From IMG/VR virus record IMGVR_UViG_3300045988_167906: 64,000 nucleotides of DNA; one strand, 5' to 3'. The notes below the pieces were generated by a model. That model made no database searches, was not told where the DNA came from, and saw only the letters and a list, made by a program, of their open reading frames with translations. Below are positions 16,813 to 57,229 of the stretch, piece after piece (the stretch's first letter is position 1; every line of letters begins with the position of its first letter). The position numbers and the translations under genes were made by a program. The stretch is from a virus.

Positions 16813-18222
16813 ATGTATAATGTATATGTTTGTAAAGTAAAAAACATTAGACCTGCGGAGAATGCTAATCGTCTGAATGCCTGTGAAGTATTTGGTATTA
16901 CTACCATTGTTGATAAATCCGTGAATGAAAATGACCTCTACGTCTATTTCCCCACGGATGGTCAAATTAGTGAAGAGTTTGGTAAGGCAAATGACCTCTT
17001 CCGCCGCAAGGATGAGAATGGTAATCCGGCGGGCGGTTTCATTGACCCTGTGAAGCGTAATATTGGTGCAATTCGTCTTCGCGGTAATAAGTCCGAAGGT
17101 CTTATCCTTCCACTTACTTGCCTTACACCTTTTGGTGACATCAGTAATCTGGCCGAAGGTGATATTGTATCTACCTTCAATGGTCATGTAATCGCCGAGA
17201 AGTATGTGCCGATGCATAAGCCCAGAGTTTCAGAGTCTACTGCACGCGGCGAACACAACCATAAGTCTGCAAAGAAATGCCGCATTAAGTATCCATTCTT
17301 CGCAGAACATATTGATACTCCCCAGCTTCGTTTTAATATGGATATGTTTAAGCCGGGCGACATTATCTGCTTGACCGAGAAGGTCCATGGTACCAGTTCT
17401 CGAAACGCATATCAGACTGCAATTGTTGGCGAAAACGGTTTCTTCCTTACCAAGCTTATTGCACATAGCAACTGGCTGCCGAAGAAGTGGCGTATGTCCG
17501 CACAGTCTCACCTTACCCCTAAAACTGAAATGCGTTATCTGATTGGTACTCGCCGCACTGTCCTTACTAACAATAGCACCGGCGGCTTTTATGACAATGA
17601 TGACTTCCGTAAGGCTTGGGGCGAGCGTTTCAAGGGTAAGCTTCTGCCTAATGAGGAATGCTTCGGTGAAATTGCAGGCTTCTACAAAGATAATTATGGC
17701 GGTGCAGTTCCTATCATGTCTCGTGGAGATAATACTAAAACAAAAGATAAGCAATTTATTAAGCAGTATGGTAAGACTACCACTTTCTCTTATGGATGTA
17801 CTGAAACTGGTTATTACACTTATGGTGATGGTACTCATGAAGAAAGACCGCTTAACCGCTATTTTGTTTACCGTATGACTTATACTACTCCTGAAGGTGT
17901 AGTAATTGAATATCCTTGGGACCTTGTTAAGCAGCGTGCAGAACAGATGGGTTTTGAAACTGTGCCTGAACTGGAACGTTTCATCTACACCACTGAAGAG
18001 GATTTCCTCGCACGGATTGCCAAGTATGAGGATATTCCTTCTACGATTGATTCTTCTCATGTAATTGAAGGTGTAGTTATTCGCAAGATGAATGGTACAC
18101 GTTTCGACGTTGCAAAAGATAAATCTTATAATTTTAAGGTACTTGAGAATCTAATTAAGGTTGATGCCGAAGTGCCGGACATGGAAGAAATTGAAGAAGA
18201 AATGACTCTGGAGGATAATTAA
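16813..18222 (+). CDS. ATP-dependent RNA ligase (Rnl2-like nucleotidyltransferase)
   Basis: Motif I LTEKVHGTS (KxHG) as in T4 Rnl2 EKIHGTN, and a large C-terminal domain. No in-frame TAG. Confidence 0.6.
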   Translation: MYNVYVCKVKNIRPAENANRLNACEVFGITTIVDKSVNENDLYVYFPTDGQISEEFGKANDLFRRKDENGNPAGGFIDPVKRNIGAIRLRGNKSEGLILPLTCLTPFGDISNLAEGDIVSTFNGHVIAEKYVPMHKPRVSESTARGEHNHKSAKKCRIKYPFFAEHIDTPQLRFNMDMFKPGDIICLTEKVHGTSSRNAYQTAIVGENGFFLTKLIAHSNWLPKKWRMSAQSHLTPKTEMRYLIGTRRTVLTNNSTGGFYDNDDFRKAWGERFKGKLLPNEECFGEIAGFYKDNYGGAVPIMSRGDNTKTKDKQFIKQYGKTTTFSYGCTETGYYTYGDGTHEERPLNRYFVYRMTYTTPEGVVIEYPWDLVKQRAEQMGFETVPELERFIYTTEEDFLARIAKYEDIPSTIDSSHVIEGVVIRKMNGTRFDVAKDKSYNFKVLENLIKVDAEVPDMEEIEEEMTLEDN

Positions 18223-23460: not shown

Positions 23461-25584
23461 ATGAGTTATTTATTTACCAGTGAAAGCGTTTTTGCCGGTC
23501 ATCCTGATAAGGTTTGTGATTAGGTAAGTGATGCTATTCTGGATTATGTCCTCCAGCTTGATCCTGATGCACGAGTAGCTTGTGAATGTACTATTAGCCC
23601 AGGCATCTTCCATATTATGGGAGAGATCACAGCTAAAACAGAACAATCTATTCCTTATCAGGAAATTGCAAGAGAGACTTTAAGATTTATTGGTTATGAC
23701 AATGATGAAGCAGGATTTAACTGCGACACTTGTTCATATATTATTAATGTAGTAAATCAATCCCCTGACATCGCTGCGGGTGTTGATAGGGATGGTGCTG
23801 GCGACCAAGGCATGATGTTTGGTTATGCAACCAATGAAACAGAAAATTATATGCCTATCGCTCAGCAACTTGCTAACAATATCTCGGTCATTATGTTTAG
23901 TAAGTATAAAAATGATTTGCTACCTTGGGCATTACCTGACGGCAAATGCCAGATAACTGTCCAATACGATGATGATGGCAACTTTGAAGGGGTAGATACA
24001 ATTGTCGTATCGGCCCAACACAAAGACAAGTATAGTATTAAGGAAATAACGCCCGATATTACGAACATTTGTAATATTGCCCTTCAAGGTTATGCCATTA
24101 AAAAAGATTGTAAATTTTATATTAACCCAACAGGTAAGTTTGTGAAGGGCGGTCCCCAGGCTGATACTGGATTAACAGGACGTAAAATCGTTGTAGATAC
24201 ATATGGTGGCTACGCTCCGCATGGTGGTGGATGCGTAAATGGAGATACAGAATTTTTAACCCTTAATGGGTGGAAAAAAATCTCTGAATTTTCTTCAGAT
24301 GATAAAGTAGCTCAATGGGATGATGGCAAGATTTCATTTGTTAATGGTGAATTTGTAAGGCTACCTAAAACTAAAATGTATCATATTGCTACTAATAAAT
24401 CATTGGATATGATATTATCTGATAATCATAATGTTCTCTATAAAACATCTAAAGGAAATTATCAGAAGAAAACTTGTCAAGAAATTTTAGACTATTATTA
24501 TAAAAATAATGGGTTTAGAAGTATTCAAATCCCTATTTATTTTACTTATGATTTTAAGGATAATCCTGGCCTTGATTTAACTGATGATGAAATTAGACTT
24601 CAAGTAGCATTTTGTGCAGATGGTACTATTCTAAAAGAGAATTCAGGATGGACTGGAAGAATTAGAGTTAAAAAGAAATATAAAAAAGAGGCATTAAGAA
24701 AACTATTCGCTTCAACAGGACTTGATTATAAGGAAACCCCAGATAATGATTGTAGTATTTTTTGGTATAAGCCTTCCTTCGTAAATAAAAAAATGAATGA
24801 ATGTTTATCTAAATGCAATTTGCATCAAGCTCAAATAATTGCTGATGAAGTAATTAAATGGGATGGAGATAGAGATTGTGTTTTTAGAACCACACATAAA
24901 GATGAAGCCGATTTTATTCAATTTATTTTTATGGCAGTTTATGGCACATCTTCTCATTTTTCTATTGATGATAGAATAGGTGAAACATTCAGTGAAAATT
25001 ATACTCGTAGAAGTATTTGTTATGAAGTAAGACAAGGTAAATATAAATATTCTACTCCATTCAGAACTTCAGGTTCTTCAATTGCCAATCTAACTATTGA
25101 AGATTATGAAGATAATGATCCTTGGATGTATTGTATTAATGTACCTTCTCATAATCTTGTATTAAGATATAATAATCGAGTTTTTATTACAGGCAATTGT
25201 TTTAGCGGCAAAGACCCCAGTAAGGTAGACCGTAGTGGTGCATATATGGCACGCTATGTAGCTAAAAATCTTGTAGCTTCTGGCGTTTGTGATAAATGTA
25301 TGATTCAAGTTGCTTATATCATTGGACAGACAGAACCTGCATCTATTGATATTAATTGTTTTGGCACAGAAAAGAAACCTATTGCTGAAATTCTTGATGC
25401 AGTTAATCAGACATTTGATTTTGCACCGCGTAGTATTATTCATAAATTTGATTTAAAGCATACTCGCTATTTACCCTATGCTTGTTTTGGTCATTTTGGT
25501 CGTATTGAATGCAATAGTCCTTGGGAACAACTTGATAAAGTAGACGAATTAAAAACAATTTTTGATTTTGAAAAGGAGAACTAA
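23461..25584 (+). CDS. metK: S-adenosylmethionine synthetase (MetK) interrupted by a 322-aa intein; TAG codon at the conserved Gln
   Basis: MSYLFTSESVFAGHPDKVCD(TAG)VSDAILD aligns with E. coli MetK [34 protein letters not shown] and (after the intein) CFSGKDPSKVDRSGAYMARYVAKN are the other MetK signature motifs. Confidence 0.85.
24232..25197 (+). mobile_element. intein inserted in the MetK HGGG|AFSGKD P-loop (starts Cys, ends Asn, +1 Cys)
   Basis: MetK homology is continuous across the deletion of 24232-25197. The insert begins CVNGDTEFLTLNGW and ends ...RVFITGN followed by CFSGKD. Confidence 0.7.
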
Positions 25585-46428: not shown

Positions 46429-46998
46429 ATGGATATTTAGATTTTATCTATTTATGAATATTTATTTCAAAAGTATATTTTACATAAAGATATATTAAAA
46501 CAATATAAAGGTATAGAATTATATAAAATTATGGAAATTCAAGATAAAATTTTTATTAATAGATATAAATTATTATTGTAGATTATTAATAATAATTATA
46601 ATTTTGATAATTAGTTAATATACACTGATTTTAATAATTTTAATTTTGAACAAAATATTAGTTATATAAATTATTGTTTAAAATTACTATTTAATAATTT
46701 TAAAAAAATAGATAAACAATTTTGGAAAATTTTAGATTAGATTTATTTTTTAATTAATGGTAAAACTAATTTATTTTTATTGTTGGGAAATTTTTATTTG
46801 AATAAAAGTAATTTATAGCAATTTACTGAAGAAATAAAAAAAATTCCTGGAATTAAAGAATAGCTCTCTTTTAGTTATACAGCTTTAAATTTAGCTATTG
46901 AAATTGATAAAGTTGCAGAAAATAAAAATTATCTTAATGAATTAATTGAAATTATTGATAATCATTCACAAGAAAAAATTTATAAATTTGATATTTAA
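46429..46998 (+). CDS. hypothetical protein (189 aa) with six in-frame TAGs in extremely AT-rich DNA
   Basis: A 570-nt frame free of TAA/TGA despite ~85 percent AT. Ends TAA. Confidence 0.45.
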
Positions 46999-47267
46999 TA
47001 AAAATTAATATATAATATATATACAAAATAAAGAAAATAAAGACTTTAACAGCAAAGAAATGGACAGTAAATCCGTCGCGAATGCTACGCAGGTTCGAAT
47101 CCTGCCCTCCCCACCACTATATGGCGGAGGTAGGGAAGCGGTTAAACCCAGCGGAACCAAACCAAATAAGTCTTGTTTGAATAAAATAATTATTTGATTT
47201 TTAATAAAAAATATTATATAATATTTATATGAAAAGAGAAAGGCTTTTACAGCAACTTAAACTTTTT

Positions 47268-47342
47268 TCCGTGGTCGAATAACTGGATAATTCATCAGAG
47301 TTAATTCTGAAAATAAGGATTCAAATTCCTTCCTTGGAGCCA
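47268..47342 (+). tRNA. tRNA-like gene with non-canonical 6-8 nt anticodon loop centred on TTAA; CCA encoded
   Basis: Acceptor tccgtgg/ccttgga (6 of 7), D stem gaat/attc, anticodon stem tcaga/tctga with loop gttaat, T arm aagga-ttcaaat-tcctt, discriminator G plus CCA. Late promoter directly upstream. Confidence 0.4.
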
Positions 47343-47433
47343 AGTATAAAAAGTCTTGGGTAAATTTCTTAATTTGAAAAAATTAAAAAAATATAATATA
47401 ATATATAAGTAATCAATAAGAAATTAAATAAAT

Positions 47434-47582
47434 GCTCTCGTAGCTCAATTGGTCAGAGCCGGCGACTTATCCAAAATTAGTTTAAATGGTAAAATAGTTT
47501 ATGCGCAAGAAAGATGTAAGTTCAAATCTAACATTTTGGGCCAAATCGCCAGATGTGGGTTCAAATCCCGACGGGAGCACCA
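47434..47582 (+). tRNA. tRNA interrupted by a ~78-nt insertion after the anticodon loop; the insertion itself has tRNA-like ends (ccaaaat...attttgg-g-cca, 47471-47543)
   Basis: Outer acceptor gctctcg/cgggagc plus A plus CCA, D arm gctc-aattggtca-gagc, anticodon stem ggcga/tcgcc split by the insert, T arm with ttcaaat. Confidence 0.4.
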
Positions 47583-47608
47583 TATTCCAATAGAAAGGAA
47601 TTAAAATA

Positions 47609-47848
47609 ATGAAGTTGACAAATATTAAGCAGGTTGAAGATTTTATTTCAGCAGTTAATCGTGCTCATAGTAATGTATGGCTGGTTAGTCCGCAGGGCGA
47701 TAGATACAATATGAAATCTGCACTTTCACAGTATATTGCACTTGGTGCATTACTTGGTCAGCATGGCGATGAACTGGAACTTTTTTGTGATAGTAAGCAA
47801 GATGAAGGTTTATTTATTGAATTTTTTGTTCGTCATTCTGAAGTTTAA
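47609..47848 (+). CDS. hypothetical protein (79 aa)
   Basis: GAAAGGAATTAAAATAATG initiation motif. Confidence 0.45.
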   Translation: MKLTNIKQVEDFISAVNRAHSNVWLVSPQGDRYNMKSALSQYIALGALLGQHGDELELFCDSKQDEGLFIEFFVRHSEV

Positions 47849-47903
47849 TAAATTTGATTTTTAATAAAAATATTATTATATTATATAGAGAGTGAGGGAA
47901 AGA

Positions 47904-48863
47904 ATGACTATTATTGAATTATTTGCGGGAATTGGGACATAGATTTCAGCTTTGGTTAAAATTGATCCAAATATTAGATCAATAGGTATTAGCGAAATTG
48001 ATGAACGACCATTGAAAGCATATAAAGTTTTGAATGGTGAATATAATAATTTTGGTGATATCACAAAAATTGATATTTTACCCTATGCAGATATTTGGAC
48101 TTATTCTTTCCCTTGTACTGATTTATCTATTGCAGGGAAGCAAGAAGGTTTTCAAGGAAAAAATTCTTCATTAATTTATGAGGTATATCGTCTCTTGCTT
48201 TCTTCTCCAAAGCCAAAAATTCTTTTAATGGAAAATGTGGCCAATATTTGTAATAATACTTTTATGCCAAAATTTCAAGAGTGGATTAATAGTTTAGCTG
48301 AATTAGGTTATGTATCTAGCTGGAAGAAAATAAAAGCTTATGAATATGGCGGAGCAACTATTAGAGATCGTGTATTCATGGTTTCAGTAATTTCTCCTTT
48401 AAAAAAGTTTATTTTCCCTTTAGCTGAAAATGTTAAAACTACTTTAAAAGATTTTTTAGAGCCAATTAACGAAGAATATTTCATTGATAGTTATGATGGC
48501 CCAAGTGATATTACTACACCATATTATAATGGAGCTAAAAAACTCTGTGATTATAAAAATGGTGGTCAAGGAAATCGAATTTATTCTATATTTGGGCAAG
48601 GAGTTACATTAACTGCTTCTGGTGGAGGAAAAGCCGGATCAAGCGGTGGTTTGTATCTTCGTAATAATAGTATTTATAAACTTACTCCAATTGAGATTTG
48701 TAAAATAATGGGTTGGACTAAAGCAGAAGCAGAAAAGATTTGTTCTGTTTTAACCCCTAGAGAAGTGGGTTTTTGCTTGGGCAATGCCATTGATAGAAAT
48801 GTGTTAATTCATATTTTTAAAGGGATAAAGGAACAATATTATGATGAATTGGGAGAAAAGTGA
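47904..48863 (+). CDS. DNA (cytosine-5)-methyltransferase; TAG at codon 13
   Basis: Motif I ELFAGIGT (upstream of the TAG), motif IV FPCTDLSIAGKQEG (PC motif), motif VI LMENV. Confidence 0.75.
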
Positions 48864-49467
48864 AAAGAAAGCATTTGAATGGTTTAAAAATAACTATGAT
48901 AATGATGCGATTTATCAAGGACGTAATGATTCTACTATTTCAGATATTTATTCTCCTTTATATAATTGCTATATTGAAGTAAAAGATATTACTAATGGTG
49001 CTCGATGCGGGCAATTTACTAAAAGTACCATCAGTAATAACCCATATGCTGAAGCTATTTATTTGGGTAAAAATGATGAAGAAACTTGTATAAATTTTGT
49101 AAAAGAGCATTATAGAGCTAAACGAGTAGGAGCTTTTATCATTATTAATAATAATAATATTTCTCTTGTGGCTTTTGATGATTTTTTTAATAATTATACT
49201 TTTGAAATTCAAAAACCTTATTGCAAAAGAAGCGGCACTTCATCGGCTCCAATTAAAGATAAAGAAACTCTTTTAAAATTTAATACAGCATTTTATCAAG
49301 AAAATAATAAAGTTTTTTGTTCTGATCAAAATTTATTTGGTACTTATTGTTCAATATTTAATCCTTTTGATTATTTTATCAGTAAAACAACTGGTGAATT
49401 AAGAAAAAGAAGTAATACTAATAATATGACTTGGCATATTGTAATTAAAGAAAAATTGAAAAATTGA
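48841..49467 (+). CDS. hypothetical protein overlapping the MTase stop (candidate cognate endonuclease or Vsr-like partner)
   Basis: ATGATGA overlap with the MTase. No recognisable motif. Confidence 0.4.
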   Translation: MMNWEKSEKKAFEWFKNNYDNDAIYQGRNDSTISDIYSPLYNCYIEVKDITNGARCGQFTKSTISNNPYAEAIYLGKNDEETCINFVKEHYRAKRVGAFIIINNNNISLVAFDDFFNNYTFEIQKPYCKRSGTSSAPIKDKETLLKFNTAFYQENNKVFCSDQNLFGTYCSIFNPFDYFISKTTGELRKRSNTNNMTWHIVIKEKLKN

Positions 49468-49529
49468 AAAATTGAAAAATTAAAAAAAATATTATAAAAT
49501 ATATATACAAAATAAATGAGAAATAAATT

Positions 49530-49606
49530 CTCATTTGTATGGGACAGTAGCTTACGAGGTCGGAGCATTGGTCTGAAAAACCAAAGGATGGAGGCTCGAT
49601 ACCTCC
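49530..49606 (+). tRNA. tRNA-Phe (GAA)
   Basis: Acceptor gggacag/ctgtccc, anticodon loop ctGAAaa, CCA encoded. Late promoter motif at 49480-49515. Confidence 0.8.
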
Positions 49607-49616
49607 CTGTCCCACC

Positions 49617-49690
49617 AATTGGTCTTACACATGGGGTTTCCGATTTGAACTAGGCAGATTAGTCACCTGCCGTTGGCAATAGACCAATTA
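49617..49690 (+). ncRNA. structured RNA candidate bounded by an 8-bp inverted repeat (attggtct / agaccaat) with internal hairpin ggcag-attagtcac-ctgcc
   Basis: No ORF. Co-transcribed position inside the tRNA array. Confidence 0.25.
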
Positions 49691-49835
49691 AAAATAAACT
49701 GAGGCAAAGGGAAATCGGGTAGTTATGATGAACTTCATAATGAAATCCTCTTGTAATCAAGCTAATTGGGAGAGAGGTAGCACGGGAACGGGGAGAAGCG
49801 TGCTATAAAAGGTGAAATACTTCTTTCCACCATAA

Positions 49836-49900
49836 GCCGGTGTAGCCGAATGGCATAGGCGAATGGAATTGAACTGAAAATTTTTTGGTTCAATTCCATT
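49836..49900 (+). pseudogene. 5' part of a tRNA gene (acceptor gccggtg, D arm gcc-gaatggcata-ggc, then a 13-bp perfect hairpin) whose 3' part lies at 50773-50800
   Basis: gccggtg pairs with caccggt of the downstream T-arm/acceptor/CCA fragment. The HNH ORF lies between them. Confidence 0.35.
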
Positions 49901-49947
49901 AATGAATAATTTTTAATTTCTAATATATTATGAAAGGAGAGATTGTT

Positions 49948-50760
49948 ATGGCTCGTTCAGATATTTTAGAAAAAGAAAAAGAAATTCGTTAGTGGATAAA
50001 CGAAGAAAAATCTAAACGTTATATATGTGAATAGTTGCATTGTAAACCTGAAACTTTAAATTCTTATTTGGAGAAAATGAATATTGAATATAAGGGATAG
50101 CCTTATAAAAAAGGATAGAATAAAAATCCTCGATGTTATAAGCCAGCTATTTATTATATTGATAATCATAAGTATATTAGCTCTTCTGTTTTAAGACAAA
50201 AATTAGTAAAAGATGGATTGAAAAAAGACAAATGTGAAATTTGTGGTATTTCTATGTGGCAAGGAATTAAATTACCTTTAGAATTACATCATAAAAATGG
50301 AAACCATTTTGATAATGATTTAAATAATCTACAAATTTTATGTCCTAATTGTCATTCAATTCAAAATGGAAATAGTGGAGCAAATATCGGTAAATACGCG
50401 GGATTGCTGGAATAGGTAGACAACTCATCTTTAGACGGTGAGGCCGACAGGTGTGAGGGTCCGAGTCCCTCATCCCGCACCAATCATATTCAAAAGAAAA
50501 ATTATTGTTGTGATTGTGGAAAAGAGATATGTTTAAAAGCTATTAGATGTAAATCTTGTGCATCTAAATTTAGACAAAATTCTAAATCTCCAGATAGAGA
50601 AATTTTAAAAGAATTAATTAGAACTACACCATTTGTAACTATAGGGAAAATGTATGAAGTTTCTGATAATGCTGTCAGAAAATGGTGTAAAAATTATGAT
50701 TTACCTTATTAGTCATTAAAAATTAAAAAAATTTCTGATGAAGATTGGAAAAATATTTAA
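49948..50760 (+). CDS. HNH homing endonuclease with N- and C-terminal HTH-like domains; six in-frame TAGs
   Basis: CEICG...ELHHKNGNHFDNDLNNLQILCPNCH is an HNH motif. A single 813-nt frame runs from the AAAGGAG RBS through six TAGs to TAA. Listed ORF 50218-50415 is an internal fragment. Confidence 0.65.
50398..50482 (+). other. tRNA-like element (gcgggat...atcccgc-A-CCA, T arm gaggg-tccgagt-ccctc) embedded in frame inside the HNH ORF
   Basis: A 7-bp perfect acceptor pairing, T arm and CCA are all present. D and anticodon arms do not fold. Confidence 0.3.
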
Positions 50761-50772
50761 TATATAAGGTGT

Positions 50773-50800
50773 GAAGGTTCGAATCCTTTCACCGGTACCA
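50773..50800 (+). pseudogene. 3' tRNA fragment (T arm gaagg-ttcgaat-ccttt, acceptor caccggt, A, CCA) immediately after the HNH gene
   Basis: See 49836-49900. Confidence 0.4.
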
Positions 50801-51293
50801 ACAGTGAAGTAGTAGCTATACTCATTATAATCAAGGCTCGGTGGTTGGTGGCTCCATCGTTATGTAAATAAGCCATATGTATATTACTTCTTGGTGTAAT
50901 GGAAGCATACTGCCTGAAAGAGGCGGAGGTATTGGTTCGATCCCGATAGAAGGAGTAATTAAAGCTAGGAAATGATAATCGCCTAAATAAATAAAGGATT
51001 ATTATTAAAGGTTATTTAGATTAAGGAAGCGGTTGAAGTTATTACTTACTTGATTATAAAATAACATGACCGCAAGACGAGTGTTTGAAGCTTGTCTATA
51101 AACAAATTCTTCATATGTTGTCTTTTTATACTTTCTCTTTGGTTGTTTCTTGACATATAAGTAAAAACGGAAAGGGAGTTAAAGGTTTAGCTATAAAACC
51201 GGTTTGTTTTTAATAAGATTTTTAAAATTAGGTGACAAAATCTTATTTGAGTGACGCTGCTCAGGAGGGTCCGGAACCTCTGAAATGCGATAT

Positions 51294-51370
51294 GCGGTTG
51301 TAGCTCAGTTGGTAGCAGCATTTGCCTTTTAAGCAAAGGGTCGGGAGTTCGAGCCTCCCCAACCGCACCA
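51294..51370 (+). tRNA. tRNA-Lys (TTT)
   Basis: Acceptor gcggttg/caaccgc, anticodon loop ctTTTaa, T arm gggag-ttcgagc-ctccc, CCA encoded. Confidence 0.8.
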
Positions 51371-51740
51371 GGTCAAGTTTGAGAAATTTCATAAAGCATC
51401 GCTGACGTTAAATGGCACTTATATGAAAACGCGTAAGTAATATAAGATAGCAAAATTCTCGTAGTTCATCCTATTAGAGAATCTTAAAGAGTAATGGCAA
51501 GGTCATATCGCGGGAGACCGTGCGTATGAGATACCAATAAAGGTAGCACATCTTGTGTTGAACAAGATAAAAGATGGAAAGGATACCTGCCATACTTGGA
51601 CGGTAAAAGAAGGCGTTGAATGTAATCGAAAAATATTCCGTTGGTTCTTAGGGGAGCGACGTAACAGTGAAACCCGAGGTTTGAGTTACCTTGTCCAAAC
51701 GCTATGTATAGTCAAAGTCTAGGCAACAAGGTTTTAATTT

Positions 51741-51817
51741 GCGGGATTAGCTCAGCTGGTTAGAGCGTTTGGTTTACACCCAAGAGGTCATTGGTTCAAA
51801 TCCAATATTCCGCACCA
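51741..51817 (+). tRNA. tRNA-Val (TAC) copy 1
   Basis: gcgggat/attccgc, loop ttTACac, T arm attgg-ttcaaat-ccaat, CCA encoded. Confidence 0.85.
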
Positions 51818-51820
51818 TAA

Positions 51821-51858
51821 GCAGGGCAACGCGGGTTCGATCCCCGCCTGGCGCACCA
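51821..51858 (+). other. tRNA 3'-half-like element (T arm gcggg-ttcgatc-cccgc, acceptor ctggcgc, A, CCA) with no matching 5' half
   Basis: Directly abuts tRNA-Val copy 1. Confidence 0.4.
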
Positions 51859-52064
51859 TTTGAGTTAAAAAGTATAAATCTTATAAACTCCCTGTAAAAT
51901 CAGGCGGACAGATGGACCGATAGTACCATTATTGTGGAAGTCAGGCAGGTCCATTTTACTGGGCTTACTGTAAAAGCCAGTTTAATACACCCTCCATACC
52001 CAATGAGGAATTTTTATAAAGGTCTATTTAATTTTTCTTGGTAGTTTAGTTAAATAGACTGTAT

Positions 52065-52141
52065 GCGGGATTAGCTCAGTTGGTTAGAGCGTTTGGTTTA
52101 CACCCAAGAGGTCATTGGTTCGAATCCAATATCCTGCACCA
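52065..52141 (+). tRNA. tRNA-Val (TAC) copy 2
   Basis: Near-identical to copy 1 (three substitutions). Confidence 0.85.
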
Positions 52142-52206
52142 ATAAATTTGAAAATTTAAAAAAAATATTATATAATATATATATAATAATAAAGGAGATA
52201 TTTGAA

Positions 52207-52374
52207 ATGGCAACTACTAAGAAACCTGCAATTAAAATGGACAGCACAGAGTTGAACGAGTATCTTCTGTTCCGCCGTCGTAGATCAATTGTGCCTGCCA
52301 AGAAAGGTAAGGGCATGGAATATGATAGAGCGAAGGAAAAAGAAAAATCTGAAAAAATGATTTCTGATGAATAA
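52207..52374 (+). CDS. small basic protein (55 aa)
   Basis: Late promoter 52150-52190, RBS AAGGAG. Confidence 0.4.
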   Translation: MATTKKPAIKMDSTELNEYLLFRRRRSIVPAKKGKGMEYDRAKEKEKSEKMISDE

Positions 52375-52378
52375 ATAT

Positions 52379-52451
52379 GCTCCCATCGACAAGTGGTCTA
52401 AGTCACCAGCCTTTCACGCTGGAGTCGCCGGTTCAAATCCGGCTGGGAGTA
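52379..52451 (+). tRNA. tRNA-Glu (TTC)
   Basis: gctccca/tgggagt, 3-bp D stem, loop ctTTCac, T arm gccgg-ttcaaat-ccggc. No encoded CCA. Confidence 0.7.
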
Positions 52452-52535
52452 GAGATACAAATTCTACAACCTTCACGCGGTGTATCTTGTTTTAACTAAT
52501 GTAGAATAAAGTAAATAAAAAGGAGCTGTTTAATT

Positions 52536-53159
52536 ATGGCATACATTTATTAGATTATTAATGATATAAATTAGAAAATTTATGTTGGTAAAACTGAATT
52601 TTCTATTGAAAAACGTTTTAAAGAACATTGTAAAGATGCTTTTAGAGAGCGCAATGAAAAACGTCCATTATATTCAGCAATGCGAAAATATGGAGTAGAA
52701 CATTTTCATATTGAACTAATTGAAGAAACTGATGATGCTAATAATCGAGAAACTTATTGGATTGAAAAATTAGGTTCTTTTAAATGGGGATATAATGCTA
52801 CAATAGGCGGAGATGGTAAAAAGTATCTTGATTATGATTTAATTATTGCTTCTTATCAAGAAATTAAAAATATTGAAGAAACTGCTCGTAAATTAGGAAT
52901 TTCTTCTGATAGTGTAGAAAGAATTCTTAAAGAAAAAAAAGAAAAAATTTATTCTCAACAAGAAGTTAATTTAGTTAAATCAGGTAAAAAAGTTGCTCAA
53001 TGTGATAAAAAAACTGGAAAAATTTTAAATATATTTCCATCTATTGGAAGTGCAGGTAGAGCTATTAATAAACCTGATATTACTCATATAAGCGCTGTAT
53101 GTTTAGGTAAAAGACAAAGTGCTTATGGTTATAAATGGAAATTTATTGAAAATAATTAA
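52536..53159 (+). CDS. GIY-YIG homing endonuclease (I-TevI/Seg-like) with two in-frame TAGs
   Basis: MAYIY(TAG)IINDIN(TAG)KIYVGKTEFSIEKRFKEH matches the I-TevI N-terminus GIYQIKNTLNNKVYVGSA...KRWKRH, with the first TAG falling on the Q of GIYQI. C-terminal ...AYGYKWKF tail. Confidence 0.75.
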
Positions 53160-53173
53160 AATTATTCTTATAT

Positions 53174-53250
53174 GGTGCTATAGTTCAGTTGGCTAGAATG
53201 TCGGACTGTCTCTCCGAAGGTCAGGGGTTCGAGTCCCCTTAGCATCGCCA
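53174..53250 (+). tRNA. tRNA-Asp (GTC)
   Basis: D arm tagttcagttggctagaat as in bacterial tRNA-Asp, loop ctGTCtc, T arm agggg-ttcgagt-cccct, CCA encoded. Confidence 0.75.
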
Positions 53251-53282
53251 TTCGTTTTCTCGATATAAGCGATTTTGTTACA

Positions 53283-53345
53283 TAGAACTTGATAGAGCGT
53301 TCTATTAATCTGGTTAGATTAAGTTTTATAACTATCATATTTGGG
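53283..53345 (+). repeat. ~65-bp double-hairpin element (tagaac...gttcta; ttaatct...agattaa), repeated at 54432-54510
   Basis: Two near-identical copies, each immediately upstream of a tRNA. Confidence 0.5.
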
Positions 53346-53418
53346 GCACGGGACTGCATGGAGTGGTCGTCTCCCTTGCAAGGAGAAAAGCAGATGAGTT
53401 CGATTCTCATGTGTTCCA
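53343..53418 (+). tRNA. tRNA-Ala (TGC), with G3:U70
   Basis: ggggcac/gtgttcc gives a G3:U70 pair, anticodon arm tctcc-ctTGCaa-ggaga, T arm atgag-ttcgatt-ctcat. No CCA. Confidence 0.55.
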
Positions 53419-53557
53419 GTCATCTAAGATCCACAACCGCCACGAGGTAGATGATGGGTAATGCTAATAGTGGACAAAAATAAAAATCGGGCAAAGTTAA
53501 TTAAACTCCTCAAAAATTTTGCTAAATATAATAGAAGGAAAAAAGGAGTTGAATTAA

Positions 53558-54190
53558 ATGCCTAGAAAATTAACTCAAGAAGAATTTGAACAAAGAGTTT
53601 ATAAATGTGTAGGGGATAAATATTTTGTTATAAGTGAATATAAAGGAAAATCTAAACCAATAGATTTAAAATGCAATATTCATGATATTGTTTTTCAAGC
53701 ATCCGCAGAATGTTTTATGCGAGGTCCAAAAGAAGTAAGATGCTCTTGCCCTAAATGTTCAGAAGAAAAGAAAAATGAAAAATTTTCTGCAAATAGAACT
53801 GAATTAGAATGTGCTTATTGTGGAAAGAAATTTATTCGTCCAAATTCTAAATTGAATAATTCAAAAAGTGGAATATATTTTTGCTGTAGAGAACATAAAG
53901 ATTTAGCTCAACGGATAGAGTTTGGTTTGAAAGAAATTCAACCAAATCATTATGGAAATAATATTGAAAGTATATATACTTATCGTAAAAATGCTTTTAA
54001 ATATTATCCTCATAAATGTGCTATCTGTGGTTGGGATGAAGATAAAGATATTTTAGAAGTTCATCATATTAATGAAAATAGAGAACACAATGAATTAGAG
54101 AATTTAATCATATTATGTCCTATTTGTCATAAAAAATTAACTTCTCATAAATATAAATTAATTAATAGGGAAAAAATTATTTCTTATTAA
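53558..54190 (+). CDS. HNH homing endonuclease
   Basis: C-terminal CAICGWDEDKDILEVHHINENREHNELENLIILCPICH. Confidence 0.7.
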   Translation: MPRKLTQEEFEQRVYKCVGDKYFVISEYKGKSKPIDLKCNIHDIVFQASAECFMRGPKEVRCSCPKCSEEKKNEKFSANRTELECAYCGKKFIRPNSKLNNSKSGIYFCCREHKDLAQRIEFGLKEIQPNHYGNNIESIYTYRKNAFKYYPHKCAICGWDEDKDILEVHHINENREHNELENLIILCPICHKKLTSHKYKLINREKIISY

Positions 54191-54213
54191 TTTATGAAAA
54201 ATTTATAATATTT

Positions 54214-54256
54214 GGAGCTTGAGGCAAAGCGAGTTCGACTCTCGCAAGTTCCACCA
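54214..54256 (+). other. tRNA minihelix (acceptor ggagctt/aagttcc, T arm gcgag-ttcgact-ctcgc, A, CCA) lacking D and anticodon arms
   Basis: 43 nt. Folds as an acceptor/T coaxial stack only. Confidence 0.4.
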
Positions 54257-54328
54257 TTAAGTGTGATATATTCCAAACACGTAGGGTGGTAAGCACACGG
54301 GTTTTCTAGAAGCCTTCCCTATGAATAT

Positions 54329-54404
54329 GGATGCATAGCTCAGTTGGTAGAGCAATTGACTGTTAATCAATGGGTCGGAGGATCATACCCTTCTGCATCC
54401 GCCA
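54329..54404 (+). tRNA. tRNA-Asn (GTT)
   Basis: ggatgca/tgcatcc, loop ctGTTaa, CCA encoded. Confidence 0.8.
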
Positions 54405-54508
54405 CCGCACTCGCGGAAAACATACAACTCAACTGGTGCATAGAACTTGATGGAGCGTTCTATTAGTCTGATGCCTGCATTAGATTAAGTTTTATAACCA
54501 TCATATTT

Positions 54509-54582
54509 GGGGACATAGTTTATGGTAGGAAAACGTTGAATTTAATTCAAAGTCGAGGGTGCGATTCCCTCTGGCTCCACCA
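54509..54582 (+). tRNA. type-I tRNA with anticodon loop aT-TTA-At (anticodon UUA); nonsense-suppressor candidate
   Basis: Acceptor ggggaca/tggctcc (6 of 7), D arm gttt-atggtagga-aaac, anticodon stem tga(a)/(t)tca, T arm gaggg-tgcgatt-ccctc, discriminator A, CCA encoded. Confidence 0.5.
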
Positions 54583-54716
54583 TTTATGAAAGACAATACA
54601 GCAATTATAAATTTGCTTTGGGAGCCGTGTGTTGTAGGTTCGAGTCCTACTGTCTGGTTGAAGATCGGATATAGCGTAATTGGTAGCGCAACGTATAAAA
54701 ATTGTCTTGTTAATAT

Positions 54717-54792
54717 TGCGGGATCGTCAAGTGGTTAAGACACCAGCCTCATAAACTGGTTATCGTGGGTTCGAATCCCACTCCCGCAACCA
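54717..54792 (+). tRNA. tRNA-Met/fMet/Ile2 (CAT)
   Basis: tgcggga/tcccgca, anticodon loop ctCATaa, T arm gtggg-ttcgaat-cccac, CCA encoded. Preceded by a degenerate 5' tRNA half at 54665-54716. Confidence 0.65.
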
Positions 54793-54916
54793 TATGAAAA
54801 GCCCACACAGCAATTTTTAATAAGGTTAAATAAGAAATTCTGCAAAAATTTTTTAGAGTTGGTTCAAATCCAGCAAATGATTTTAGGGCTTTGTTAAAAT
54901 TGTTAAGGAGAAAATA

Positions 54917-55102
54917 ATGAAGTTCAATCCAGGAGATAAGGTCTGGTGTAAGAAGTATGGCAAGGGTAAGTGCCGCAAGACTGATGATAAGGACAATTTC
55001 ATGACTTATCTTTTCAGATTTTATGATGGTACTCTGATTTGGATGCCAAAACGTCAGGCTGAACATTTTGTAAGAGTTCGTTCCACCGAGGCCACGGTGT
55101 GA
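54917..55102 (+). CDS. hypothetical small protein (61 aa)
   Basis: RBS AAGGAG. Confidence 0.4.
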   Translation: MKFNPGDKVWCKKYGKGKCRKTDDKDNFMTYLFRFYDGTLIWMPKRQAEHFVRVRSTEATV

Positions 55103-55261
55103 ATATAAAGTCCGGTTATAGGAAATCCTGTCATTAGGCGGCAGGCTACCGGTAATCCTTTCTTATATATTTAAATATGTAAGGAACAAAAACTATACAA
55201 TAGATAGAGTTTTTACGCCTTGGCGCAATGCTTGTTTTTTACTATCTATTTTTTTATATTC

Positions 55262-55348
55262 GGAGTCGTGGGATAATGGTATTCCAATGGATTGCTAATC
55301 CATCCTACCTCTTGGGTAGTCCGCGTTCGAGTCGCGGCGATTCCGCCA
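55262..55348 (+). tRNA. tRNA-Ser (GCT), type II
   Basis: ggagtcg/cgattcc, 3-bp D stem, loop ttGCTaa, long variable arm ctacc-tctt-gggtag, T arm ccgcg-ttcgagt-cgcgg, CCA encoded. Confidence 0.8.
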
Positions 55349-55354
55349 TTATAT

Positions 55355-55442
55355 GTAGGAGTGCCAGAGTGGTCGATTGGGTTAGTCTCCAAAACTAATT
55401 GTAGCTGCACATCCAGGGTTCGAATCCCTTGCTCCTATGCCA
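55355..55442 (+). tRNA. type-II tRNA (Ser/Leu-like architecture) with apparent anticodon CCA
   Basis: Acceptor pairing, 3-bp D stem, anticodon arm ttagt-ctCCAaa-actaa, ~15-nt variable arm, T arm with ttcgaat, CCA present. Confidence 0.5.
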
Positions 55443-55715
55443 TACGTATTAAGACTCATTTTCAGCAAACTTTTGCCTGTAAAGGCTCTACAATACTTAT
55501 TTATTACTAATAGATGAAAAAGTATAATAAAGAAAATAAAGTATATTTTGAAAAGTTTTTTCTTTTTAGCTAGTTTAGTAAACTAAATTTCGCATTTTTT
55601 CTTCTGGCTTTTCAATGAGTCTTGTTTATTAAAATAATTGGTATCGCTAAGCTTTATGGTAATTGTGGTGTATTTAAATCATAGATAGTTAAGGGTCTAT
55701 AGCCAATTATGGTAT

Positions 55716-55804
55716 GCGGAATTAACTTGCCCGGCGGTAAGCCTTGTCTTGAAAACAAGTGGTCCTGTGACAGGGATGGGGATCGACACCTCAGTTCCGC
55801 GCCA
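55716..55804 (+). tRNA. tRNA-Ser (TGA)-like, type II; D arm degenerate
   Basis: gcggaat/gttccgc, anticodon arm cttgt-ctTGAaa-acaag, long variable arm, T arm tgggg-atcgaca-cctca, G plus CCA. Confidence 0.45.
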
Positions 55805-55850
55805 CTCGTTTCAAATTCGTTCATTGCATTTCATCCTTTCTATAAAGATG

Positions 55851-55888
55851 GACTGATTAGATTAATCAGTCCATCTTTTTTTTTATAT
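55851..55888 (+). terminator. strong rho-independent terminator (13-bp stem gatggactgatta/taatcagtccatc plus T9) closing the tRNA array
   Basis: Perfect hairpin plus TTTTTTTTT. Confidence 0.8.
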
Positions 55889-56167
55889 ATTTTAAAGACA
55901 GTAGGTTATAAGTTGCTCTGGCCGGCTTGGACCATTAAAACCAAATGCTTAAATTAAAATTCCATTTAAGAAATTTTCGGTCCAACAGGTATAGAGCAAT
56001 ATAAAATAATTTTAAATATGAAAGGAGAAGGACAATATGAAAATGTTTATTCTTTCATATAAGGGCGGCAAAGATGGCGGCGATATTGACAAAGAAGATA
56101 CTTCCAAGTCAACAGGCGGCTGGGATGGCGGCTCTATAGATGATGATTAAAGAAAGGAGAACACGAG

Positions 56168-57229
56168 ATGGCTGAAATTATTAAGTTAAGACGCGGTAAA
56201 TCAACTAGTTGGTCTAAAAAGAATATAGTCCTGGCAGCTGGTGAAATCGGCGTAGAACTTAATACACATTAGATTAAAGTCGGCGATGGTTCAACCCCTT
56301 GGAATGAACTATCTTATGTAGGCGGAACTAAAGTTGTTAATGTTCAAGAATACACTGATAATCCAGCAGTTGTAGATGGCGTGCCTTATCAATCTATTGA
56401 TGTAGCATTTATGAAGGCTCCAGCAGGAAGTACAATTCGTCTTAATGCTAACTTTGATAACAGTGTTTCTATTGATAAAGCATTGACTATTGAATTAAAT
56501 GGTAATGATATTATTAATAATGAAAAAACTCCAATAGATATCAAAGCAAACGGCGATTTAACTATTAAGGGCCAAGGTACTATTGAATGTAATAAGAATG
56601 AAAATGCCGCAGTTTTTAATAATGGTAATATTACTATTAATAATGGTAAATTACAACGTACTACTGATGTATCAGGTAATGGTTATTATACTGCTGTTAA
56701 TCATGGCACTATGACAATCAATGGCGGCATGTTTATGAGTGGTGGCGAATTTTCCAGTATGATTGAAAATGGCTATTGGGATTATCACGCTGGTAATACT
56801 ACTAATGGCTATGTTCAAGGTCAAAATGCTGAAGCACCTACATTAACTATTAATGATGGTACATTTGCTGGCGGTTTATATGCTATAAAAAATGACGATA
56901 ATGCTATTTTAAATATTAATGGCGGCACATTCTATAATACTATTCTTGCTAATGGTAAGTCAATGACTATCACTGATGGGTATTTTGAAAATAGTAAGCC
57001 AAGTCAAGGCGAATATAATTTTTATCTTCGTAAATTAAGTGAAGATTTAAATCCTCAAAATACATATATTAGTGGCGGTACATTTATTACTGCACAAGAT
57101 AAGAATTTCAAGGTTGAGGGCGATCCTCATATTGAAATTAGTGGTGGTCGTTTTAATAGAGAATTAGATCCTTCTTATTTGGCTCCTGGCTATAGACAAA
57201 TACTTGTCAATGGCTTCTATACTGTCTAG
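56168..57229 (+). CDS. tailspike / tail-fibre protein with right-handed beta-helix repeats; TAG at 56279
   Basis: N-terminal anchor MAEIIKLRRGKSTSWSKKN...LNTH(TAG)IKVGDGSTPWNELSYVGG shared with 57245, 57783, 61719 and 63467. Downstream N-x-x-G / INGG repeats. Confidence 0.65.

Follow-up and report, generated by a model that had tools for sequence, protein, structure and literature searches.

The 64,000-nt stretch of viral DNA analysed here (IMG/VR record IMGVR_UViG_3300045988_167906; hereafter the window) carries within a cluster of tRNA genes a cassette with a gene for an HNH endonuclease. We consider it probable, at roughly 0.7, that this homing-endonuclease cassette inserted into the anticodon arm of a tRNA(UAG) gene, killed that gene and brought with it a tRNA-Leu(UAG) of its own, encoded in frame inside the endonuclease's open reading frame (ORF). 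The element belongs to a known kind, the free-standing phage homing endonucleases of tRNA clusters. It is unusual in that a covarying tRNA is translated in frame between the two domains of the protein, that a tRNA gene with the same anticodon has been destroyed, and that the ORF needs the recoding of a stop codon. Homing, function of the tRNA and control of expression by tRNA processing are what we infer from the sequence. The anticodon UAG shared by the broken and the embedded tRNAs, as well as the need of the ORF for TAG as a glutamine codon, go beyond a first-pass annotation of the same DNA.

The insertion is documented by two contigs in which the site is empty. L084, a metagenome contig, and L101, a 201-kb IMG/VR contig, carry at this locus an uninterrupted 76-nt tRNA(UAG) gene (528-603 and 702-777, respectively) with the sequence GCCGGTGTAGCCGAATGGCATAGGCG-AATGA-TTTAGGA-TCATT-AATCT-GAAGGTTCGAGTCCTTT-CACCGGT-ACCA, which ARAGORN calls tRNA-Leu(tag) in both, the L084 copy scoring 62.7 bits with the Rfam tRNA model. 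Window positions 49836-49865 are identical to the intact gene at 30 of 30 positions (L084 528-557, L101 702-731), and positions 50772-50800 at 28 of 29, the single difference being located in the T loop. The conserved block on the left is 92-94% identical between the window and L084 or L101, where the intact tRNA follows directly; the blastn alignment of L101 with the window ends exactly at 49865, and the right flank of L101 is homologous to the window too. Compared with the intact gene, the window lacks 17 nt (nt 31-47) and has 906 nt instead; the loss extends from the last base of the anticodon stem's 5' strand through the anticodon loop and the 3' stem strand into the variable loop, which lacks four bases. 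Neither the 3' piece nor an intact version of the tRNA turned up when IMG/VR was scanned for exact patterns; the intact copies came from loci fetched for other reasons.

What is left of the outer tRNA is regular. Starting at 49836, GCCGGTG-TA-GCCGAATGGCATAGGC-G forms an acceptor strand and a D arm of regular shape, and starting at 50773, GAAGG-TTCGAAT-CCTTT-CACCGGT-A-CCA forms an equally regular T arm (50773-50789) followed by acceptor strand, discriminator and CCA. GCCGGTG at 49836-49842 pairs over 7 bp with CACCGGT at 50790-50796, including a G1-U72 wobble, and A-CCA follows. When the two pieces were joined, ARAGORN with default thresholds called a cloverleaf for 108 of 1000 junction choices, and therefore the acceptor, D and T arms are of tRNA grade and only the anticodon region is missing. 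We read the outer pieces, from these alignments, as the leftover of the target tRNA gene. The first-pass annotation had proposed that tRNA pieces with complementary acceptor strands bracket the HNH gene, that a free-standing endonuclease had been inserted into a tRNA gene with no group I ribozyme core, and that relatives lacking the HNH gene at the locus should have an intact tRNA. All of this is borne out by the 7-bp pairing and the T arm, by the empty sites on two independent contigs, one of which (L101) matches both flanks, by the 17 lost nucleotides and by the failure of any intron model to match in the window. Its 5' tRNA portion, 49836-49900, has to be shortened: positions 49836-49865 are tRNA-derived, while the remainder belongs to a hairpin (49862-49900) that continues into the cassette.

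The second tRNA, at 50398-50482 inside the ORF, is called tRNA-Leu(tag) by ARAGORN, being the only tRNA-Leu that this program calls in the window, and, in a search of this region by itself, scores 35.2 bits with the Rfam tRNA model, for which the gathering score is 29. It starts at ORF offset 450 (mod 3 = 0), on a codon boundary, and 92 further codons follow it. Conservation was assessed in 11 loci of the same form (N domain, tRNA, C domain) whose DNA was read, with protein identities to the window of 57-98%. An 85-nt tRNA-Leu(UAG) is present in all of them, at ORF offsets 444-468 and always on a codon boundary. All 242 stem cells (22 pairs in 11 loci) are paired, 16 of the 22 pairs have changed on both sides, and the covariation score is 0.677 versus 0.06-0.16 for controls in which the partners were slid by 1-3 columns. 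ACCA (columns 82-85) and the anticodon TAG are invariant; the anticodon loop reads YU-UAG-A, with the anticodon (columns 34-38, alignment A3) unchanged in 11 of 11 while the stems vary freely. Over the 29 tRNA codons dN/dS is about 1 (about 0.4-2.5), with much lower synonymous divergence, whereas among relatives it is 0.12-0.41 in the N domain and 0.19-0.53 in the C domain (Nei-Gojobori; nine pairwise comparisons for the C domain). The tRNA segment is thus constrained as RNA and the flanks as protein, and both protein domains are, on this codon evidence, under purifying selection. Judged by its pattern of substitutions, the embedded element is therefore a conserved, covarying tRNA-Leu(UAG), more than the tRNA-like in-frame stretch that had been noticed at first.

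The tRNA is also kept open as a coding sequence. The spacing between the N and C domains is a multiple of 3 in all loci, in spite of four different linker lengths, and TAA and TGA are absent from the used frame in 11 of 11, which is true of only 51% of 83 free-standing tRNA-Leu genes. The signature of a translated tRNA (...LE..D...L[DE]...G[SP][SN]P...) was found in at least 29 of the 120 nearest protein clusters, and the arrangement is thus common in gut-phage metagenomes. Reading of the sequence revealed no start codon between the embedded tRNA and the zinc ribbon, and therefore the C-terminal domain can be translated only by reading through the tRNA sequence.

The protein itself is matched over its full length by PHROG 10822, 'HNH endonuclease' (E = 7e-25), and by Pfam PF01844 (HNH) at residues 96-138 with E = 0.004 and 17.7 bits, below the curated cut-off of 21.4. 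Its HNH motif, HHKNGNHFDNDLNNLQILCPNCH at residues 114-136, has the form HH...N...H/CPNCH and is invariant in 32 aligned homologues, and 2046 homologues were found in a metagenomic protein collection. Its nearest relative among characterised enzymes, T5 hegA/F-TflIV (NC_005859, tblastn), is 34.3% identical over query residues 1-245 (E = 7e-32), and the product is, as far as homology can tell, a free-standing HNH endonuclease of this type. Scanning IMG/VR with a protein pattern rendered two distant matches only, at 36% identity, and a profile search against PDB sequences rendered zinc-ribbon noise only. An AlphaFold model was made on P0002, a protein 89% identical to that of the window; residues 1-145 and 182-270 are confident and residues 146-181 have pLDDT < 50, so that the linker covering the tRNA-encoded residues is predicted to be disordered, between two confident domains. 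The C-terminal module (zinc ribbon and helix-turn-helix) occurs also in other endonucleases of these phages.

The ORF at 49948-50760 has six in-frame TAG and no TGA, and TAA only at its end; it is an ORF only under TAG recoding, because the standard bacterial code puts six stops inside it. In-frame TAGs are present at conserved motifs also in a C5 methylase gene (47905...) and in a tail-fibre-like gene (about 56270), and a GIY-YIG gene (52536...) is likewise broken by two of them. The code was settled by codon-by-codon comparison with relatives, and not by statistics of ORF length under different stop-codon sets. Across the HNH alignment, with the rows of L006 and L007 left out, the residue opposite TAG is most frequently glutamine (63 cases) and then lysine (42), and direct exchanges between TAG and CAA are seen among the HNH genes of close relatives. 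Codon comparison thus identifies TAG as a sense codon for glutamine in this phage. A tRNA with anticodon CUA is encoded by the relatives L007 and L101, and none was called inside the 64-kb window; a hairpin at 54282-54322 has a 7-nt loop, TTCTAGA, that would present a CUA anticodon, and is not a complete tRNA. Recoding of TAG to glutamine is known in gut phages, for which it has been suggested that recoded in-frame stops delay an intron endonuclease until late infection (bioRxiv 10.1101/2021.08.26.457843).

Since the destroyed and the embedded tRNAs share the anticodon UAG, the cassette removes one tRNA(UAG) and supplies one. In a mixed infection, the enzyme would cut the intact tRNA(UAG) gene of a relative and repair would copy the cassette in. 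The recipient would exchange its short class I tRNA(UAG) for a class II tRNA-Leu(UAG), which would make invasion cheap, and the embedded gene would be immune to the enzyme, its sequence differing throughout from that of the target. Each transcript could either mature into tRNA or be translated into full-length enzyme, the two outcomes being mutually exclusive. RNase P and 3' processing would cut the mRNA between the nuclease and the DNA-binding domains and keep enzyme levels low, and the six TAG codons would limit synthesis to the phase of infection in which a TAG-reading suppressor tRNA is active. The embedded tRNA would moreover tie the fate of a selfish gene to that of a useful one, as the endonuclease could not be cleanly deleted without loss of the tRNA. 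A parallel in the family, by analogy, supports tRNA replacement as a family habit: at L046/L043 2170-3135, a complete tRNA-Gln(UUG) and, after it, a full-length HNH gene lie between the two ends of a Gln-type tRNA. This layout also breaks one tRNA and brings one, with the replacement placed upstream of the ORF and not inside it.

The HNH family is tightly associated with tRNA arrays, especially with tRNA-Leu (85 metagenomic loci), and takes three forms. Most loci have contiguous N and C domains; 14 loci have an N domain only, which ends at a tRNA gene or inside it; and the window shares with its gut-phage relatives the form in which N domain, tRNA-Leu(UAG) and C domain follow each other in a single frame. 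Several observations weigh against the explanation given above. As many members have contiguous domains or stop at the tRNA, the enzyme can do without an embedded tRNA, which may have been either gained or lost in evolution. The broken tRNA is a short class I and the embedded one a class II molecule with the same anticodon, and the two may differ in amino-acid identity. A 3' remnant whose T arm and acceptor pairing are intact is kept more often than simple decay predicts, which hints at a function of the outer pieces outside the favoured explanation. Finally, the T loop of the embedded tRNA is TCCGAGT in the window, L089 and L086 and TCCGAAT in L005, with C at position 55, and the 10-25 pair (alignment columns 10 and 26) is mismatched in 11 of 11 loci; the embedded tRNA may be a poor or non-standard one. 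Position 55 of the T loop is a near-universal U in tRNAs.

The retention of the 3' remnant could be explained if the outer pieces were a working tRNA shell, at whose ends RNase P and the 3' enzymes free the endonuclease mRNA from the array transcript and whose closed ends stabilise it. This possibility, which is compatible with the favoured explanation, is a minor one. The same order of parts (acceptor 5' strand and D arm, HNH ORF, then T arm, acceptor 3' strand and NCCA) is found with unrelated shells in the three long inserts of Table 1 (in L084, L093 and L096), with acceptor pairing of 7/7 in each, and nearly every relative has its stop codon overlapping, or no more than about 15 nt away from, a T arm with acceptor strand and CCA. 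In L005, whose HNH protein is 89% identical, 13 nt of the D arm are gone, yet both acceptor strands and the T arm are kept and the 3' remnant (50772-50800) is identical. Against a working shell speaks the decay of the 5' piece among close relatives that carry the cassette: it is intact in L089 (98% identical HNH protein), but in L086 (86%) unrelated sequence stands in the place of its acceptor strand and D arm. L095, with an HNH protein only 57% identical, has the same 26-nt 5' piece, but its 3' remnant begins inside the T stem, the 5' strand of which is overwritten by the end of the ORF, and L003 and L093 have no matching 3' piece. The shell of the window is, besides, demonstrably the leftover of an ordinary tRNA gene.

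It can also be asked whether the embedded sequence still decodes. An element serving only as a processing or regulatory structure, for example as an RNase P cut site that splits the domains, would be consistent with C55 in the window, L089, L005 and L086, with the mismatched 10-25 pair and with the modest Rfam score. We regard this as unlikely: the anticodon is invariant in 11 of 11 loci while the stems vary, which fits a decoding tRNA and not a mere cut site, the element is the sole tRNA-Leu called by ARAGORN in the array of the window, and the T loop is a normal TTCRAnT outside the lineage of the window, in the other seven loci.

An insert that is a true intron, either a degenerate group I or a protein-removed one, whose splicing would restore the outer tRNA(UAG), is very improbable, although distant members of the family are intron-borne (L053, L059 and L075) and an RNA ligase is encoded in the window. 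Searches with group I and group II intron models rendered no match in the window (gathering score and E <= 1; Intron_gpI with the region alone, E <= 10), and the same search does detect a group I core in L075. The old tRNA could not be restored by splicing, because 17 nt including the whole anticodon loop are lost, so that the joined pieces cannot decode, and no ribozyme is detectable; the 5' piece is, in addition, damaged in close relatives. A group I or II intron was accordingly rejected for the window, given the undetected ribozyme core and an insertion that is imprecise by comparison with L084 and L101. Hardly more credible is the proposal that the long ORF is a stop-readthrough artefact, with the N-terminal nuclease alone as the real product and the C-terminal part as a dead remnant: the ORF does end at or just inside the tRNA in L006, L007 and T5-like phages such as SmurfNell, but the C-terminal dN/dS given above, the frame and the absence of TAA and TGA kept in 11 of 11 loci, and TAG read as glutamine elsewhere in the window (methylase, GIY-YIG and tail-fibre genes) all argue against it.

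In the intron-borne relatives (31-35% identity to the protein of the window) the HNH gene lies inside a tRNA-Leu(UAA) interrupted at the classical site between U34 and A35. In L075 (98-1140) the intron is of 958 nt and the HNH ORF is uninterrupted, and the group I core (683-781; 43.7 bits with Rfam Intron_gpI, E = 1e-9) falls, in frame, within that interdomain linker which in the window holds the tRNA; a sequence resembling an S-element overlaps the HNH stop codon. The linker of this HNH family can therefore carry structured RNA. The other long linkers (135-174 nt, 12 loci) rendered no intron match, and ribozyme-bearing linkers are therefore not the rule in this family. Several more loci have the HNH gene just downstream of a tRNA whose group I intron contains no ORF. 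With the group I introns that carry homing-endonuclease genes in the anticodon loops of bacterial tRNA-Leu(UAA), the cassette of the window shares the class of target (Leu-type) and the anticodon-arm region; unlike them, it has no ribozyme, inserted imprecisely and leaves the host tRNA unrestored, and compensation would come from a replacement gene, not from splicing.

The relation to other known systems is closest for T5 hegA/F-TflIV, a homologous protein with the same three-part build of helix-turn-helix, HNH and C-terminal DNA-binding part, whose gene is likewise placed among tRNA genes (T5 has also F-TflI and F-TflII). The T5 gene, however, has contiguous domains with no tRNA inside, is located between tRNA genes and uses the standard code. 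A closer homologue, 47-48% identical over the N domain, is found in the T5-like phages SmurfNell, Slocum and CitS1, where it adjoins and overlaps a tRNA-Leu gene; the annotated HNH coding sequence of the SmurfNell type ends 6 nt inside tRNA-Leu. On the other hand, the likeness to T4 segB that had been noted in the first-pass annotation holds for the setting, an endonuclease gene in a phage tRNA cluster, and not for the enzyme family, which is HNH here and GIY-YIG in SegB. SegB targets the tRNA genes of relatives and drags neighbouring tRNA genes along, and maturation of the tRNA-Arg next to it entails a cut in the segB mRNA, which has been proposed to limit the enzyme, as has also been proposed for the T5 enzymes (PMC2330249). 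Unlike in the window, segB lies between tRNA genes, only the region of its stop codon touches a tRNA processing site, and there is neither a tRNA in the ORF nor a split tRNA gene. A bioinformatic precedent for a tRNA inside an ORF is selC (tRNA-Sec), nested in the selB ORF of Alphaproteobacteria, for which folding and processing of the tRNA have been proposed to repress the full-length protein (Mukai 2021, PMC8124441). Both cases have a whole tRNA in a same-strand ORF that continues beyond it, with the same hypothesis of repression. In selB, however, the tRNA is in a C-terminal extension of a cellular translation factor, whereas in the window it stands between the domains of a mobile phage endonuclease, covaries in many lineages and duplicates the anticodon of a destroyed gene.

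A search with the intron mode of ARAGORN followed by a register check revealed tRNA-shaped inserts in the anticodon loops of other tRNA genes. In eight loci the first and last 7 nt of the insert (before N-CCA) pair 7/7, and deletion of the insert leaves a tRNA that is called with the ARAGORN defaults. The window itself has one: its tRNA-Ile(UAU) (47434-47582) contains after position 36, in the anticodon loop, a 73-nt insert (47471-47543) with 7-bp acceptor pairing, a D arm and a T arm, ending in G-CCA, the deletion of which gives a clean 76-nt tRNA. The tRNA-Ile(UAU) of L089 carries a copy with one compensatory change of an acceptor pair with respect to the window, and a ninth copy, identical to that of L089, is in L101. 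The short inserts are of 58-77 nt and the long ones of 735-876 nt, with an HNH gene where the anticodon arm would be (Table 1). The exons of the L084 tRNA-Asp are identical to the intact tRNA-Asp of the window (53174-53250). In the three long inserts the HNH protein has the same C-terminal module and the stop codon overlaps the T stem of the insert (3/3); by sequence they share with the locus of the window the build of an HNH gene inside a tRNA shell. The papers searched gave no account of inserts of this kind. For their removal, RNase P would cut at the 5' end of the insert and the 3'-processing nuclease after CCA, which would leave a 3'-OH and a 5'-phosphate in the anticodon loop of the host tRNA, to be sealed by the phage RNA ligase (16813-18222). 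We suggest only tentatively that the element of the window is a free-standing member of a wider, apparently undescribed class of tRNA-shaped intervening elements, removed as introns by the enzymes that process tRNA ends. If true, this would mean protein-based tRNA splicing in bacterial viruses, with homing endonucleases riding in tRNA-shaped introns.

Table 1. Positions of the elements discussed; coordinates are those of the window unless a contig is named.
Feature	Position	Strand	Remarks
5' remnant of the disrupted tRNA(UAG), nt 1-30	49836..49865	+	acceptor 5' strand, D arm, first 4 nt of the anticodon stem
Hairpin, 18 bp perfect, 3-nt loop	49862..49900	+	spans the junction of tRNA remnant and cassette
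Inserted cassette, 906 nt	49866..50771	+	from empty-site alignments with L084 and L101
Shine-Dalgarno sequence AAAGGAG	49933..49939	+	8 nt upstream of the ATG; conserved in relatives
HNH endonuclease ORF	49948..50760	+	270 codons and TAA; six in-frame TAG read as Gln
N-terminal part of the ORF	49948..50397	+	helix-turn-helix region and HNH catalytic motif
Class II tRNA-Leu, anticodon UAG, encoded CCA	50398..50482	+	85 nt; in the protein, a linker of about 29 aa
C-terminal part of the ORF	50485..50757	+	zinc ribbon (CxxC...CxxC) and helix-turn-helix DNA-binding module
3' remnant of the disrupted tRNA(UAG), nt 48-76	50772..50800	+	last variable-loop base, T arm, acceptor 3' strand, discriminator A, CCA
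GIY-YIG gene of the array	52536-53159		ORF separate from the HNH gene 49948-50760
Second HNH gene of the array	53558-54190		
Short insert	L095 2106-2182		tRNA-Asn anticodon loop
Short insert	L061 1932-1995		tRNA-Gln anticodon loop
Short insert	L005 2099-2156		tRNA-Lys anticodon loop
Long insert with HNH gene	L084 2177-3052		tRNA-Asp anticodon loop
Long insert with HNH gene	L093 1475-2209		tRNA-Asn anticodon loop
Long insert with HNH gene	L096 2750-3601		tRNA-Glu anticodon loop

The hairpin at the left junction contains the palindrome AAAATTTTTT, overlaps the last four bases of the tRNA remnant and runs into the cassette. The 70 nt that include it (49836-49905) have a folding energy of -28.3 kcal/mol (z = -5.9), and L005 has kept it, two of its pairs having changed in compensatory fashion. 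In L003, L006, L092, L093 and L095 a related palindrome (CCAAAAWTTTTTGG-like) is found 70-100 nt upstream of the HNH start. The conserved AAAATTTTTTGG-type palindrome could be part of a promoter, an operator, a processing site or a scar of the junction; a scan for sigma-70 promoters and terminators upstream of the ORF rendered nothing convincing. Further to the left, a non-coding block of about 215 nt (49618-49834), ending in ...TTTCCACCA, separates tRNA-Phe from the split tRNA; L084 and L101 have it at 92-94% conservation, and L005, L086 and L089 conserve it too. It has no Rfam match and varies too little for a covariation test.

The window has a G+C content of 35%, being AT-rich and phage-like, with its genes on the + strand, and its dense tRNA array extends from about 47.0 to 55.8 kb, with 14 tRNAs called by ARAGORN and more added by Rfam. 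A megablast search of 46500-56500 against 50,697 phage records found no match. Several other elements of the array resemble parts of tRNAs. Orphan pieces with a T arm and an acceptor strand, most of them ending in CCA, are located at 47089-47116, 47315-47345, 51831-51858, 54211-54257 and 54634-54657. One of these stands directly after tRNA-Val and another, an acceptor/T-arm minihelix, directly after the second HNH gene, and the first of the five (47089-47116) has a weak Rfam match to the 3' end of tmRNA. A low-scoring tRNA at 50884-50956 (Rfam 33.7 bits; Phe(aaa) for ARAGORN) has G at position 33 and no encoded CCA, and the corresponding element of L101 and L084, called '???(gtag)', differs from it in having an over-long anticodon loop. 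Outside the array, the RNA ligase, of 469 aa, shows Pfam RNA_ligase PF09414 and a PHA02142 OB fold and belongs to PHROG 968; in a genome full of interrupted tRNA genes, it is a candidate sealer of broken anticodon loops. In the S-adenosylmethionine synthetase gene (23617-25584), an insert of about 330 aa parts the N-terminal and central domains from the C-terminal one; it has PhoH-like and terminase-like ATPase matches and may represent either an intein or a domain insertion.

Selfish endonuclease genes usually avoid harm to their host by being located between genes, in self-splicing introns or in inteins. The cassette described here suggests a fourth way for such a gene to spare its host, namely to break the target and carry a substitute in its own reading frame. 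The locus also illustrates clearly how a single piece of DNA can have two uses at a time, as a tRNA whose stems covary and as a translated protein linker in which amino-acid changes are neutral. Loci of this kind will mislead gene finders and tRNA finders alike, above all where a phage rereads TAG. Phage tRNAs have come to be regarded more and more as counter-measures against host anticodon nucleases, and swaps of tRNA isoacceptors driven by endonucleases between co-infecting phages could therefore matter in the arms race between phage and host.

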